Source: Methanobacteriaceae archaeon (GTDB lineage Archaea > Methanobacteriota > Methanobacteria > Methanobacteriales > Methanobacteriaceae). Taken from it: a stretch of DNA of 12,216 nt. Of this stretch, positions 1 to 6,000 are shown in pieces. Location: assembly GCA_003558085.1 (NCBI GenBank), contig PWMT01000095.1, forward strand, positions 1-12,216, given 5' to 3'. Made by a program: the position numbers. Position 1 is the first letter of the stretch. Every line of letters starts with the position of its first letter.

Positions 1-3000
1 AGATAAATGTATTCTATGTGGGGTCTGTTCAACTAAATGTCCGGTAAGCGCTTTACGCTTAGAAAGAAAGGATATTTCCTGATTTCTTATAAATTATATT
101 AGATTCTCCTTGGATACCTATTTTTTTACTAATTACATTTTATAGAAGAGGGGTTTTATTGCATAGGGTTATATTAGTATTGGTTCTAAGTATTAAGCTC
201 CTAGATTTTCTATTTACTTAAATAAAACCTTTAACTTGTTATAGGAATCATTTTTCAAGTGATCCAATCCTCTTTTAAATTATATTTACTATGGAGATTT
301 AATAAATCATCCCCTGGATTTTGATGTTGAGGGGAAGGTAATCTAAGCGTAGGTAAATTTAATAATCTTTAAGTAATGTAATCTAGTAATAATAGACATG
401 ATGAGTATTTATCCTGATGATCATATTATTTGGCAAAAGATAACACCATCTCGTTACTATATAGGGGGATGAAAGTGGAGAGAATAAATCATGAAGGTTA
501 AAGAAATTATGGATAAGGATTTTGTAAGTGTTTCTCCTCAGCAGGGACTGGAGGAAGCATCTCTAAAGATGGAGAAATATAGAAAATTTACCACTCCTGT
601 AGTTGATGAGAATATGAAATTAATCGGATGGATCACTACCCTGGATATTACCCGTGGATTCAGGGAAGGTAAAGAAACCATTCAAGAGATTATGCATAAC
701 AAGCAATCTGTACATCATGTCCATGAAAATGATCCTGCTCGTTTAGCTGTTTTAGAGTCAGCTAAACATAAATTAGTTAGCATGCCAGTTTTAAATGATG
801 AGGGTATTGTAGTGGGTCTGGTGCGCACCTATGATATTGTGGAAAACTTATCCCAGCTCTATGAAATCAAGGTTTATAAAATATTCAAGGCCATGGAACA
901 GGAACTTAAGGGAGTAAGCTGGGATGAACTGATGGAAGCTGCAGCTATCATCACCCGTAGAAGAACCGGCCATCGGATCAAACCAGAAGAATACGAACAA
1001 AGAATAAGAGAATCCACTTTCGGTGAAGCTATATGGGCTACCGGGGGTTTGGAAAAATTCTTTGTGGGTTTAATTGCTATTGGAGAACTGGTTATTGCTC
1101 GTAAAGTGGCTAGGGCTCGAAAATAGTCATACCTTGGAAGATGCCTTGCCTGAAAGATTTTAAACTCACATACTGCTTAATTTAGTGATGCACTTTAAAT
1201 TTAAATCTTATTTTAGGGTGCTCTTTTCTAATTTATTCTTAAATAAGCTTTACTTAAATGTAAGATCAATTTTATTTTACTATTCTTTATTTAATCTCTT
1301 TCTACCATTTTTTTTATAATATGGGTATTAATTTGTGGGAATTATTTTTCTTTTATAGGCTAGAGCTAAGGGCAAAGACTTATATAATATTGTTCGCATA
1401 ATATAATACATTCGCCAATTACCGAACTAAAATTAGGAGGGGATTTTTTCCCTCCTCCATCTTTAAAGGGGGAATTTTACATGAAATTTGAAGAAATAAA
1501 TAAACAATGCCCACTATGTAAATGCCAGGATAAAAGCATATCCCGTAAAAGAACATCAGATTTAAATGAAGATACCTTTTACATTCGTCACATACCCCAA
1601 GGCACTGTGGGTGTAATCCGATGCTCAGAATGCGGACACATCTTTGAATACTGTCATGATAGTAAAATGCCAGTGAAGGTAAAAAAGATCCAAATATAAA
1701 TATCTTCATAAACTCTGTTCTAAGCACTGAAAACTCAAATTAATTAAATTATAGTCTTATTTTTTTTTAAATAAAAGTCTAAAACATTACTTTAAAAAAA
1801 AGAAGTTTATTATCACTTAAATTAGTTCTTTTTTTCCTTTTTCCTTTTTAAGTATGAATCTAAATGGAAATACTTTTTTATTAATATTAAAGTAGGTTAA
1901 ATAGCTGTTATTTAAGGCTTATTCCCTACTTTTTAGATTTTTAAACCCTTTAAATATTAAATAAATATAAGCTGCAATTTAACTAGAAGGTAAAATCTAA
2001 ATAAATAAAAAGATAAAAATAATCTCAAAGTTAACTTAAATCAATTAATTATTAGATGCCAAGATGACCGAGAGGCGAGGTGCGTGGCTGCAAACCATGA
2101 TACTTGGGTTCAAATCCCAATCTTGGCTTAACTTATTTTTTTTTAAAATATTTCATAAACATATTATTATACTAAAACGCTAATTATAGGATGGTAGGTA
2201 AAAAACTATGCTCTATATCTACAACACCCTAAGCCAGAGAAGGGAACCATTTCAAGCGGTTAAGGATCAAGTAGTAAAACTATTCGTCTGCGGCCCCACC
2301 GTCTATGAAGATGCTCATATAGGCCATGCCCGAACTTACATCTCCTTTGACATAATTAAACGTTATCTTCAATATAAGGGGTATACGGTTTATTATCTGC
2401 AAAATATTACCGATATTGATGATAAAATCATTAAAAGATCCCAAAAACTAGGCTTAGATCCCCTTAAATTAGCCCGCAAATATGAAAAAAGATACCATCA
2501 GGATATGGAAAAATTAGGGGTTAACCAGGTTAACTTTTTCCCCCGGGCCAGTGAACATATAGATCAAATAATAGGCCAGATTCAAACCTTAATCCAGAAG
2601 GGATATGCTTACCCCACTCCGAGGGGTGTTTACTTCGATATCAGTCAATTTCCAGATTATGGTAAACTTTCCCGGCGTAAAGTGGAGGACTTGAATGTAT
2701 CCCGTCTTGAAACTGATCCTTATAAAAAAAATCAAGGAGATTTTGCTTTATGGAAACTAAGGGATGAGGGGCCACTATGGGATTCTCCTTGGGGTTCAGG
2801 TAGGCCGGGGTGGCATATTGAAGATACTGCTATTACCGAAGAATATCTAGGCTCCCAATATGATATTCATGGTGGTGGATTGGATCTTATATTCCCCCAT
2901 CATGAAGCAGAAATAGCGCAGATGGAATCAGCCTCAGGCAAAATTCCCATGGTAGCTTATTGGATGCACACCGGTTTTTTAAATGTTTCTGGAGAAAAGA

Positions 3001-6000
3001 TGTCCAAATCTCTGGGAAATTTTATCACCATCCGGGATTTATTGGAAAACCACCACTCCCAGGTCTTCCGTTTTTTCGTATTATCCACTCACTACCGCAG
3101 CCCCATCGATTTTTCCATAAAAGCATTGGAACAATCTGCTAAAAGTTTTACTAGAATAAAAAAATTAGTTAATCGACTCTACCAATTATTAGATGAAGAT
3201 TTAAAGGAAAGTGCTGAGGAACCCTTCCAGGGATGGTTACAAGAATATAAAGAACAGTTTTTCCATTATATGGATCAAGATTTTAACACACCCCCGGCCC
3301 TGGCAGCAGTGTTTAAATTAACCCGCAAAATAAATCAGGCCTTAGCACAAACTAAACCATCACTACCTGTCTTAAAGAATATATTATCATTCTTCCATGA
3401 TTTAGAAGAAATTCTGGGTTTGCAATTACGAGCAGAAGATGAAGAGCACCGCGTGGATGAATCAGCAGAATTATTAGAACTTATTCTACATATCCGTGAA
3501 AAATTACGTGAAGAGAAAGAATGGGAATTAGCTGATAAGATCAGAGCTAAATTAATAGATTTAGGATATGAAATTCAAGATTGATTAGAGCAAGTTTGTT
3601 TTAACACCCACCAACTTTAATTAACAATAGTTATATATATTCCTAGTGGACATATAATAGTAATAATAACGTGAACTGGTTTTTGATGATAAAGGTGGAT
3701 AGGATTACTTTAAGAGGAAAATTATTACGACTATTTCTTATAAAAAATATTATTTTCTGACTATAAACTAATAATACATCCTTCTAATCCAGTTTAAAAA
3801 TTTAAGAAAGTATATAAATTATAGTTAGTTAATACTCTTTACCCGAAAACTATAATGATACTAACAGTCACCTGCTAGTGGAGAGTGAGAAGGAAATCTA
3901 AATATAGTCCAACTCGAGTTCAAAAAAAAAAATGGAGAGGCGAGTTCCCATGATGGAGAAAAAACATAAAAAATCTCAGCACTCTTTAGTTAGAGAAATT
4001 AAAGATAATCTTAGAGCATCTCCTGATCTGGGAATAAAAAGATGCATGCAATGTGGTTTATGTACATCTAATTGTCCTGCAGCCCGACATAGTGATTATG
4101 ATCCCCGGGAGATGGTGAAAAAAGTCTTGGATAATAACTTAGAAGTTCTGGATAATCCTGATATTTGGAACTGTTTCTACTGCTATACCTGTGCCAGTAA
4201 CTGCCCAGTTAATAACAGTCCCTCCCTAATCAACCAGATCTTAAGAGAAAAAATCTTAAATACTGGTGGAAACGTTTCCCGGGTCGCTGAATTTATAGAA
4301 TTTGGATATAATTATGTAGAAAAGGGAGTGGGAACCATACCTTCCACTTTTTTCCAGGATCTAGTTGATGATTTCGGGGAAGATTACCCGAAATTAAAAC
4401 ATGATTTACCTGATATCCGCCGGAAATTAGGTTTAAAAGAATATAATCTTAAAGGTGAAGCAGCAGCAGAAGTAAAAAATATTCTTAAAGCTTCTGGATT
4501 CACCCAGAGACTGGAAAAATTAAAAAAAATAGCTTGAATCAAATAGTTTTAGTATTAGACTATGATAAGTTTTATCCTCCTATTTAAAAAAGGTTCATTA
4601 ATATTCTCTTTTAGAAAAAAAATTAGAGGTATTGATATAGATGAAAAACATACCCCATGAAAATATCCTTTTATTTAAAAGCTGCCTGGTTAATGTAGAA
4701 TATCCTGGAGTGGAGTCTTCTACCCGGTATCTTTTTGATCATTTAGGAGTGGAATATCAGGTTCATCCTGACCAATCCTGCTGCACTGGTCTGGGATATT
4801 ATTATGATCTATTTGACCAGTATTCTACTCTGGCCCTGGCTGCCCGTAATTTTTACCTAGCCCGAGAAAGTGAACATACTAATATCACCACTCTATGCGC
4901 CACCTGTTATGCTATACTAAAAAAATCACTCCATCTGCTTAACTCGAATGAAAAGGCTCGCAGCAAAGTTAATGAAATATTAGAGGAAGCTGGACTCTCC
5001 CATATGAAATACGAGGCAAATATGTTAAGTAGTGAAGAAAATATCTTCCATATAGTGGAAGTTTTATATTCTAAACGAGAGCAAATATCCCAAAAAATTA
5101 AAAAAGACTTTTCCAAGATTAAAGTGGCAAGTCACCATGCCTGTCACTACTGCAAAATTTATCCAGAACAGTCTATCACTTCCTCACGCAATCCCATGCT
5201 CTTGGACGAACTGGCAGATTGTTGCGGGGTAAAGGTAGTGGATTGGTATGATTTTAAAAAAGCAACTTGTGGAGCAGGTTTCAGTCAGAGATTCGCTAAC
5301 CGTGATCTTTCCTTATCAGCCACCCGGGATAAACTATATGCTCTGGAAGGAAAAGCAGATGTTCTGCTCCATATGTGCCCTAACTGTCAGATGCAATTCG
5401 ATCGTTATCAACCAGTACTGGAAAAAGAATTAGGTCGAAAAATAGGTTTAATACACTTGAATATAGCCCAATTAGCAGCTTTAGCTATGGGGGCAGATCC
5501 CTATGAGGTGGTAGGAATACAAACCCACACCATACCTGTAGAGGATCTTATAGATAAGATTAAGGATATTGAATAAGTTTTAAAATTAAATAGATAAATT
5601 TTAAAAAAAAATCTAATCAGAATAAAATTTTAAGCTCCTAATTAATTAATAAAAATATTTAATTATGATTATAATGACTAATAACTCTCCCCAAGTAGAA
5701 TACATACCTCCGGTATACAAGGAAAAACGCCTGAGGCATAGTAAAAATCCAGATAAAATAGGGGTTTTCCTATGTCGCTGTGGAGATAATATTTCCAATA
5801 TTATTGATATGGAAAAATTAAAATCCAGTATTAAAGCAGACTTTGTAGCTGAATTTGAAAATCTCTGCTCTATTAACTGCAGGAGACATATCCGAGAGGA
5901 AATAATTGAACATGATTTAGATCGGGTGGCTATAGTAGCCTGCTCACCATTAACCCATCTTAAAACTTTTCAAAATTATGCAGATCCCTTAAATCCCCAC

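Follow-up and report, generated by a model that had tools for sequence, protein, structure and literature searches.

Why should a methanogen that makes Cys-tRNA through SepRS and SepCysS keep a second tRNA-Cys gene directly upstream of cysS, and what keeps the two tRNAs apart? Among cysteine identity elements, U73 is regarded as nearly universal. The genome-wide survey's note on this locus had proposed that the cysS-linked tRNA carries C73 and/or A37 as anti-determinants against SepRS, only where SepRS is present, and thereby forms an orthogonal pair with CysRS. We examined this proposal in a window of 12,216 nucleotides (the whole stretch of DNA analysed) from a member of the Methanobacteriaceae, G000, whose linked tRNA itself has U73, and in the genomes of its family.

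The linked tRNA and both cysteine routes in G000

The linked tRNA precedes an intact cysS by 79 nt (Table 1). ARAGORN and the stems read from the sequence give a GCA cloverleaf with its anticodon at 2090-2092, an A10:U25 pair in the D stem (2067/2081), A37 (2093), a 4-nt variable loop (2100-2103) lacking position 47, U73 (T2128) and no encoded CCA; a free-energy fold (z=-2.46) recovered no cloverleaf, though it did contain the acceptor stem. Compared to the linked tRNA of its three genus relatives, there are two base differences, at positions 42 and 73; the tRNA is also distinct from the housekeeping tRNA-Cys (C77:14390-14461, G37/U73), as had been claimed. Since the 9-T run behind the tRNA, which has counterparts in G124, G125 and G122, is a possible terminator, co-transcription of the tRNA with cysS cannot be assumed. 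A sigma-70 promoter and terminator scan, with a model that does not cover archaeal promoters, gave matches at chance level only.

Table 1. Features of the G000 cysS locus (window positions)
Feature	Position	Strand	Remark
cysS-linked tRNA-Cys(GCA), 'C type'	2058..2128	+	ARAGORN call
9-T run behind the tRNA	2136..2144	+	possible archaeal terminator, function predicted from sequence
cysS, cysteine-tRNA ligase, 458 aa, intact	2208..3584	+	TIGR00435, 502.6 bits (cut-off 340)
Codon for Ile145 (= E. coli Val146)	2640..2642	+	Glu in all C73-linked enzymes examined
Asp206, replaces the cysteine of E. coli position 209	2823..2825	+	alignment
Non-coding gap before a 126-aa gene and asnB	8604..9092	.	place occupied by cysK-cysE in genus relative G124

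That sepS, pscS and cysS are all present was confirmed, with sepS (SepRS) at C18:8256-9851 and pscS (SepCysS) at C131:857-1960; neither cysK nor cysE was found in the G000 genome. The SepCysS retains the RRGF motif, which gates U73 (PMC5688128). The region of SepRS expected to read m1G37 aligns to methanogen SepRS with its helix kept (A. fulgidus Ile444 unplaced), and two PF02475 matches (222 and 154 bits) are Trm5-like, though they may be Taw2-type paralogues. The CysRS has HIGH and KMSKS motifs and aligns over its full length to the E. coli enzyme, whose position 209 cysteine we take to be a ligand in a Cys/Cys/His/Glu zinc site. Cys28, the His and the Glu of this site are retained, while the second Cys is replaced by Asp206, a residue found in 124/124 family CysRS, including those of Sep-less genomes in which no other route was found.

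Linked tRNAs mostly deviate from G37/U73 where the Sep pathway occurs

We surveyed 314 family genomes, 131 with the Sep pathway and 183 without. G043 and G312, which lack a SepRS match, were counted with the former for their SepCysS and both tRNAs, and G033 for a partial SepRS match at a contig end. The tRNA-Cys search pattern is blind to A73 and intron-bearing tRNAs; its reversed control gave no match across the 314 genomes. Bacterial-type matches in G132, G180 and G205 were excluded from the tallies, as was a match in G112 that is not a tRNA. Gene absences are uncertain, being drawn from draft genomes.

Two tRNA types were told apart, with A10:U25 in 129/131 linked-type genes and G10:C25 in 58/58 of the housekeeping type. 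Among 111 loci centred on family tRNA-Cys genes, cysS follows 49 of 53 linked-type copies (two of the four misses lie at a contig edge) and none of the 58 housekeeping copies, so that the reported linkage stands and the pair is co-inherited. Both types occur together in 94/131 Sep-pathway genomes vs. 1/183 others, a genome with 8% contamination.

C73 and/or A37 mark the linked tRNA of 100 among the 107 Sep-pathway genomes that possess one, whereas it is G37/U73, as claimed, in 128 of 129 genomes without the pathway, the lone non-U73 exception being an 84% complete genome (with grouping by SepRS match alone, the Sep-less group would hold 4 C73 cases in 132). A discriminator other than U occurs in 97 family relatives. 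The direction of the earlier claim thus holds, but its exclusivity does not: neither mark is present in 6/107 Sep-pathway genomes, rather than 1/45, and these six form one SepRS/SepCysS-bearing clade. Independent pairs gave four comparisons in the same direction, none opposite and one tie (p=0.125; G061, with one U73 and one C73 linked-type copy, was dropped from pair tests). The combination of A37 and U73 was seen again in G000, but G066 is A37/C73 here (genome labels may differ). The housekeeping tRNA-Cys is U73 throughout the family, as reported, but not always G37, since A37 marks its sole copy in the SepRS genomes G077, G085, G127 and G130.

Do C73 and A37 then enforce strict mutual orthogonality wherever SepRS occurs, G000 included, by repelling SepRS? 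Besides the contrast of 100/107 vs. 1/129, this would fit the published SepRS determinants m1G37 and U73 (accessible text of PMC8762117 and PMC2330236) and the Trm5-like genes of G000. Against it stand the six G37/U73 genomes with SepRS/SepCysS and the four SepRS genomes whose sole SepRS-type copy is A37. Furthermore, SepRS is relatively insensitive to changes of U73 (PMC5688128) and the M. maripaludis enzyme acylates A37 tRNAs (PMC5424206); in G000, both tRNAs have U73 and CysRS has Ile145. We consider strict orthogonality improbable: the two marks go with the Sep pathway, but their role as anti-determinants is poorly matched by these SepRS data. Less probable still is the suggestion, raised in the accessible text of PMC8762117, that Cys-tRNA with C73 evades a hydrolase that reads U73, for example the editing domain of ThrRS, given U73 on the linked tRNA of 128/129 Sep-less genomes and on housekeeping copies throughout.

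C73 co-varies with Glu145 of CysRS

By alignment to E. coli CysRS, residue 145 falls in the segment that separates one half of the catalytic fold from the other. Glutamate occupies this position in 56/56 C73-linked CysRS compared to 2/50 U73-linked, 0/18 unlinked and 0/19 outgroup enzymes, and the same column holds Glu in 29/29 Methanothrix-family loci (G114, with an in-frame stop in cysS, was left out of alignments and trees). This tracking of C73 by Glu145 is new in the present analysis; by independent pairs, 3.7 of 4 go the same way (p=0.125). U73 can occur without Ile/Val, as two genomes show: it is accompanied by Glu in G018 and by Arg in G057, where it stands on the sole tRNA-Cys. No CysRS alignment column follows A37 vs. 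G37 (best MI 0.38). The literature we found, including the accessible part of PMC13449415, names no E. coli CysRS residue contacting U73; from the co-variation, we infer a contact between residue 145 and base 73. Because SepRS is relatively insensitive at 73 and A37 tRNAs are acylated by that of M. maripaludis, C73 is best supported as a determinant for the altered CysRS, more than as a SepRS anti-determinant.

It should be noted that the U73 of G000 had been suspected of being an assembly error for C, given C73 in its three genus relatives, and that our evidence comes from contigs rather than raw reads. An error is, in our view, extremely unlikely: T2128 was seen in contigs of runs X1 (the likely source sample) and X2. 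The codon in cysS differs as well (ATC vs. GAG/GAA in relatives), with the same Ile codon in contigs of X1 and X4 and in the divergent X2 contig. Ile145 beside U73 indicates that G000 is a true co-revertant.

Reversion falls mostly on lineages without one route

Inspection of the exceptions, and only then, revealed an association with cysK. Among the 107 Sep-pathway genomes with a linked tRNA, the 86 with cysK comprise 83 with C73, two with A37/U73 and one with two copies, while in the 21 that lack cysK the linked tRNA has U73 in 7 and retains C73 in 14. Both G000 and the six Sep-pathway genomes with neither C73 nor A37 lack cysK, and in G258, G167, G009, G021, G100 and G114, cysK-cysE adjoin the tRNA-cysS unit.

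Outside a large U73 clade, the CysRS tree has four reversions, every one on a branch without one of the two routes; such branches account for 33% of the at-risk tree length (approximate p=0.012, post hoc; G061 and G113 dropped from this test). With both routes present, C73/Glu was held over 7.5 units of tree length with one reversion, vs. 4 reversions in 3.7 units once one route was lost. The former, the fifth in all, lies on the stem branch of the large U73 clade (47 tips), whose ancestor had both routes by parsimony. Within this clade, G128, G129, G132, G133, G190, G266 and G270 encode SepRS, CysRS and CysK and have no linked-type tRNA, showing that separation is not obligatory. The only both-route genomes of the clade that retain the linked tRNA, G003 and G258, both have A37, while G254, the SepRS-less sister of G258, has G37. 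Reversion to U73 with Ile/Val falls mostly on lineages having lost one route; it tracks cysK loss, and the C73/Glu145 match seems to be held mainly while both routes exist.

An alternative is neutral co-evolution under redundancy, where the SepRS lane lets the tRNA-cysS unit drift from U73 to C73 and from Val to Glu free of cost, the match being compensatory and separating nothing important. The near-restriction of non-U73 tRNA-Cys to SepRS genomes (1 exception in 129), the arrival of separate lineages at C73, A73 and G73, the seven both-route genomes above and the non-significant pair statistics speak for drift; the uneven distribution of reversions over the tree and the A37 of G003 and G258 vs. 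the G37 of SepRS-less G254 speak against it. We regard this explanation as a minority one, though a better candidate than strict orthogonality.

A probable private tRNA for the direct route

The explanation we favour, with a probability of roughly 0.6, is that the linked tRNA serves the direct route (CysE-CysK-CysRS) as its private tRNA, separated only while both routes coexist. Its observed components come from sequence comparison: the two tRNA types, the linkage, the C73-Glu145 co-variation, the near-restriction of genomes with both types to those with the Sep pathway, and the concentration of reversions in lineages that lost one route. CysE and CysK would make free cysteine, which CysRS would load on the linked tRNA, inherited with cysS as one unit, while the housekeeping tRNA would serve SepRS/SepCysS. 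Glu145 would read C73 and disfavour U73, so that CysRS would spare the SepRS tRNA; A10:U25, the missing A47, the frequent A37 and C73 would make the linked tRNA a poor SepRS/SepCysS substrate; G10:C25 and G37 are described as minor determinants for SepRS alone (PMC2330236). The outcome would be two preferential lanes rather than absolute orthogonality.

In G000, deletion of cysK-cysE would have limited CysRS to salvaged cysteine, and the pair would then have gone back to U73/Ile145. Its CysRS probably charges both tRNAs, and the SepRS side alone may still be held off via A37, A10:U25 and the lack of A47, which suggests that any remaining separation is partial and at most one-way. Of the earlier proposal, the co-inherited tRNA-cysS unit, the occurrence of C73/A37 with the Sep pathway and the return to U73/G37 upon its loss are supported, but G000, having lost the C73/Glu match, is the weakest case for orthogonality.

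More tentatively, and with the odds somewhat against it, Glu145 and C73 could be a natural one-residue, one-base switch by which the cysteine discriminator, supposedly invariant, is re-keyed. The cassette, common to the Methanothrix family and the Methanobacteriaceae, would then be mutually orthogonal with the SepRS lane and selected only while both routes run, and would have been switched off at least five times, recently in G000. If this is true, V146E would re-key other CysRS enzymes for C73. The lane split, put forward as a suggestion in the accessible text of PMC8762117 and PMC9071458, now becomes a one-residue, one-base test with natural before/after pairs (G124 vs. G000, G052 vs. G049), with the physiological condition that both cysteine routes be present; it also offers genetic-code engineering a CysRS-tRNA pair that may be orthogonal.

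Comparison with known systems

CysRS-SepRS orthogonality has been proposed before (Mukai 2022 and Zhang 2022, after Perona 2018; PMC8762117). As summarized from Perona, Rauch and Driggers 2018 in the accessible text of PMC8762117 and PMC9071458, tRNA-Cys has C73 in Methanobacterium, A73 in Methanolobus and G73 in Methanospirillum, with CysRS altered in an acceptor-binding 'small loop' and orthogonality to SepRS suggested. All three types were recovered here. Outside the family, a set of 37 named methanogen genomes gave 8 non-U73 tRNA-Cys genes, all of them 2-45 nt before cysS. A first pattern scan of genome contigs for A73/G73 tRNA-Cys, allowing two gaps, had given no match, its acceptor stem being too narrow, as later matches showed; a phylum search centred on G314 gave none in the 19 genomes that it covered, and a cysS-query search for related loci returned only 3/80 from the family. 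In their accessible text, those summaries name no residue and do not mention gene linkage, counts across a family, reversion, dependence on cysK, loss of one tRNA once SepRS is gone or a C73 form in Methanothrix, some of which the chapter itself may hold; the supplement text of PMC8762117 has nothing on CysRS or C73. Like the genomes with the Perona pairs, G000 encodes both SepRS and SepCysS, but differs in its U73 discriminator and in Ile145, where C73 relatives have Glu; unlike them, it is a revertant with A37.

In Methanosarcina mazei, SepRS and CysRS of one cell prefer different tRNA-Cys isoacceptors via core differences (Hauenstein and Perona 2008, as summarized in reviews), and all its tRNA-Cys have U73, unlike the C73 forms of the Methanobacteriaceae. 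The Methanosarcina-type cysS genes that we examined are unlinked, have Ile at the residue-145 column and belong to a separate CysRS lineage. A tested precedent for the mechanism is the PylRS1/PylRS2 system of HMET1, in which the discriminator base and one small enzyme change yield two mutually orthogonal pairs in one archaeon (accessible text of PMC9071458). The HMET1 pairs, shown by experiment, involve two paralogous class II enzymes, whereas in the present case one enzyme is of class I and the other of class II, and both would serve the same codon.

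tRNA-Cys types and the Sep pathway

The genome-wide survey's note had held that the tRNA-Cys linked to cysS is distinct from the housekeeping one, and indeed the two tRNA-Cys genes of the genome under study (G000), which encodes both SepRS and SepCysS, are of different types. Among fetched copies, G10:C25 together with a 5-nt variable loop containing A47 marks the housekeeping (S) type (58/58), and A10:U25 (129/131) together with a 4-nt variable loop (131/131) the linked (C) type. The linkage itself was also confirmed, cysS lying downstream of the tRNA in 49 of 53 C-type loci vs. 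none of 58 S-type loci.

Positions of the features discussed (in G000 unless another genome is named)
Feature	Position	Remarks
TIGR04165 Cys-rich peptide gene	window 1481-1699	upstream of tRNA-Cys
tRNA-Cys(GCA), A37/U73	window 2058-2128	upstream of cysS
cysS, intact	window 2208-3584	starts 79 nt past tRNA-Cys(GCA)
Asp codon at E. coli Cys209 position	window 2823-2825	within cysS
hdrC-hdrB-hdrA	window 3932-8046	downstream of cysS
126-aa protein gene	window 9093-9473	
Second tRNA-Cys, G37/U73	C77:14390-14461	sole other tRNA-Cys
Separate five-tRNA cluster (Tyr, Ser, Met, His, Trp)	C89:6303-7094	unlike main copies; possibly of mobile-element origin
A37 S-type tRNA-Cys, G077	G077:C1:334735-334806	
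A37 S-type tRNA-Cys, G085	G085:C3:50415-50486	
cysS, G114	L554:1538-2917	broken by in-frame stop (an error or a pseudogene)

All 314 family genomes were searched for SepRS, cysS (291 matches) and tRNA-Cys, and 66 chosen genomes for SepCysS. SepRS exceeded the cut-off in 128, which with G033, G043 and G312 make 131 Sep-pathway genomes; tRNAs were tallied by eye from printed matches to a pattern blind to A73. The C type was present in 107 of the 131, as G37/C73 (55), A37/C73 (42), G37/U73 (six: G018, G023, G024, G026, G027, G029), A37/U73 (three: G000, G003, G258) or two copies (G061). In the remaining 183 genomes it occurred in 129, as G37/U73 in all except G113 (84% complete; C73); 35 had the S type only and 19 no tRNA-Cys match. 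The earlier claim that C73 or A37 tracks SepRS thus describes most of the 107, but fails for a six-genome G37/U73 clade in which SepRS, SepCysS and an S-type tRNA are all retained. S and C types coexist in 94 of the 131 Sep-pathway genomes, against 1 of the 183 others. Once the Sep pathway has been lost, therefore, either tRNA gene may disappear; the one left has U73 and, with rare exceptions (the A37 S-type genes of G007 and G301), G37.

Several genomes deviate individually. The only S-type tRNA-Cys is A37 despite SepRS in G077, G085, G127 and G130. SepRS and SepCysS are kept in 4 of 103 genomes (G190, G192, G258, G266) of genus g19, otherwise without SepRS. G097 (99% complete) has cysK but neither cysS nor the linked tRNA, and G003 has two cysS genes, one behind an A37 tRNA, one adjoining cysK. 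In G123, cysS (locus L563) clusters outside its own genus, with g25, while the DNA upstream of the tRNA matches G125; a gene may have been replaced on the downstream side.

CysRS residue 145 co-varies with base 73

When 124 family CysRS sequences, from loci hand-picked (non-randomly) to span genera and exceptions, were aligned with 19 from outgroups, one outstanding column emerged (MI 0.88), residue 145 of G000 (E. coli Val146). Glu occupies it in 56/56 C73-linked enzymes, whereas the 50 U73-linked enzymes have Ile (35), Val (12), Glu (2) or Arg (1), and Glu is absent from 18 unlinked and 19 outgroup enzymes. The G000 codon is ATC (Ile), vs. GAG or GAA (Glu) in relatives. Because this codon has changed too, and because contigs of sequencing runs X1, X2 and X4 agree with G000 at the checked tRNA and cysS sites (X1 being probably the source sample, and X1 and X2 perhaps one campaign), the earlier concern that its U73 is an assembly error is removed. 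G018 (U73 with Glu) and G057 (U73 with Arg) resemble intermediates whose base changed ahead of the residue.

Elsewhere in CysRS, Asp replaces E. coli Cys209, a zinc ligand, in 124/124 family enzymes; it is also found in Methanothrix, Methanospirillum/Methanoregulaceae and 6/19 outgroup enzymes.

Non-U73 tRNA-Cys outside the family

Among 37 named methanogen genomes, tRNA-Cys was A73 in three Methanolobus and one Methanosalsum, A37/G73 in one Methanospirillum (two copies) and one Methanoregulaceae genome, and C73 in one Methanothrix. All eight genes lie 2-45 nt upstream of cysS, and SepRS was found in 5/5 such genomes tested. The A73- and G73-linked CysRS lack Glu, their difference sitting in the adjoining loop. 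C73 occurred in 38 of 105 Methanothrix-family genomes, with cysS downstream in 29/30 loci and Glu in 29/29. Since the CysRS of this family and the Methanobacteriaceae clade are sisters, the Methanothrix form belongs to the same lineage rather than to a separate origin; such rooting makes C73/Glu ancestral and implies five reversions.

Methanothrix-family loci (L516-L545, L559-L561, L567) have the cysS start codon ~2 nt past C73, and tRNA 3' processing would yield a nearly leaderless cysS message. One member, G375, carries two tRNA-cysS units.

Reversion and loss of one route

SepRS alone was no predictor of reversion: among independent pairs, 4 agreed in direction, none ran the other way and 1 was tied (p=0.125). 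Counting partial matches, 86 of the 107 genomes gave a cysK match (83 C73, 2 A37/U73, the two-copy genome) and 21 gave none (14 C73, 7 U73), cysK being missing in the six-genome clade and in G000. The loss in G000 looks real, since tblastn of the genome revealed no cysK or cysE orthologue and the window is unbroken where its genus relative G124 has cysK-cysE, ahead of the 126-aa gene and asnB. These genes adjoin the tRNA-cysS unit in several genera, and cysK was present in 28/28 Sep-less family genomes tested. Setting aside the large U73 clade (47 tips), there were four reversions, every one on a branch missing either the direct (CysE-CysK-CysRS) or the Sep route; such branches account for 33% of the at-risk tree length (post hoc test, rough p=0.012). 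The fifth reversion, a counter-case, sits on the stem of the large clade, seven genomes of which run both routes without a C-type tRNA. Neutral drift, by which base and residue would have changed without consequence, is judged unlikely.

The 126-aa protein, with an HTH-like stretch, several cysteines and no Pfam or NCBIfam match, is a candidate cysteine regulator. In many genomes a homologue separates cysE from the tRNA or cysS, and G000 retains the gene despite its cysK-cysE loss.

Proposed mechanism and published work

The anatomy, linkage, co-variation and co-loss of the tRNA-cysS pair are established by sequence comparison. PMC2330236 lists the anticodon and U73 as major determinants shared by SepRS and CysRS, with A47 a minor one for both and G37, A59, G1:C72 and G10:C25 minor ones for SepRS only; according to PMC5688128, SepCysS gates on U73, SepRS being relatively insensitive at 73. 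The gate motif is retained in G000 SepCysS. We consider preferential lanes probable (roughly 0.6): Glu145 would accept a hydrogen bond from the C73 amino group and repel O4 of U73, thereby biasing CysRS toward its own tRNA, while several weak tRNA changes would hold SepRS and SepCysS off the linked tRNA. Strict orthogonality, G000 included, is very unlikely; A37 tRNAs are acylated by M. maripaludis SepRS (PMC5424206) and, judged by its sequence, G000 has lost the CysRS-side lock. G000 is a revertant variant, not a model case.

Our literature search, which left most subscription papers outside its reach, turned up nothing on residue 145, the reversions, a link to cysK or the C73 form of Methanothrix, including in the accessible parts of PMC9499178, PMC9976931 and PMC13449415. 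The tRNA-cysS feature is real and of a known kind, and the orthogonality hypothesis is already in print: the available text of PMC8762117 reports C73 in some Methanobacterium tRNA-Cys, such base-73 changes accompanying mutations in the CysRS acceptor-binding region, and suggests that the CysRS and SepRS systems are perhaps orthogonal. That of PMC9071458 restates the CysRS change as a 'mutated small loop'. Perona 2018, to which the two papers refer, may give the residue by name. Our data make this idea directly testable by naming a residue, supplying natural revertants and adding a second condition.
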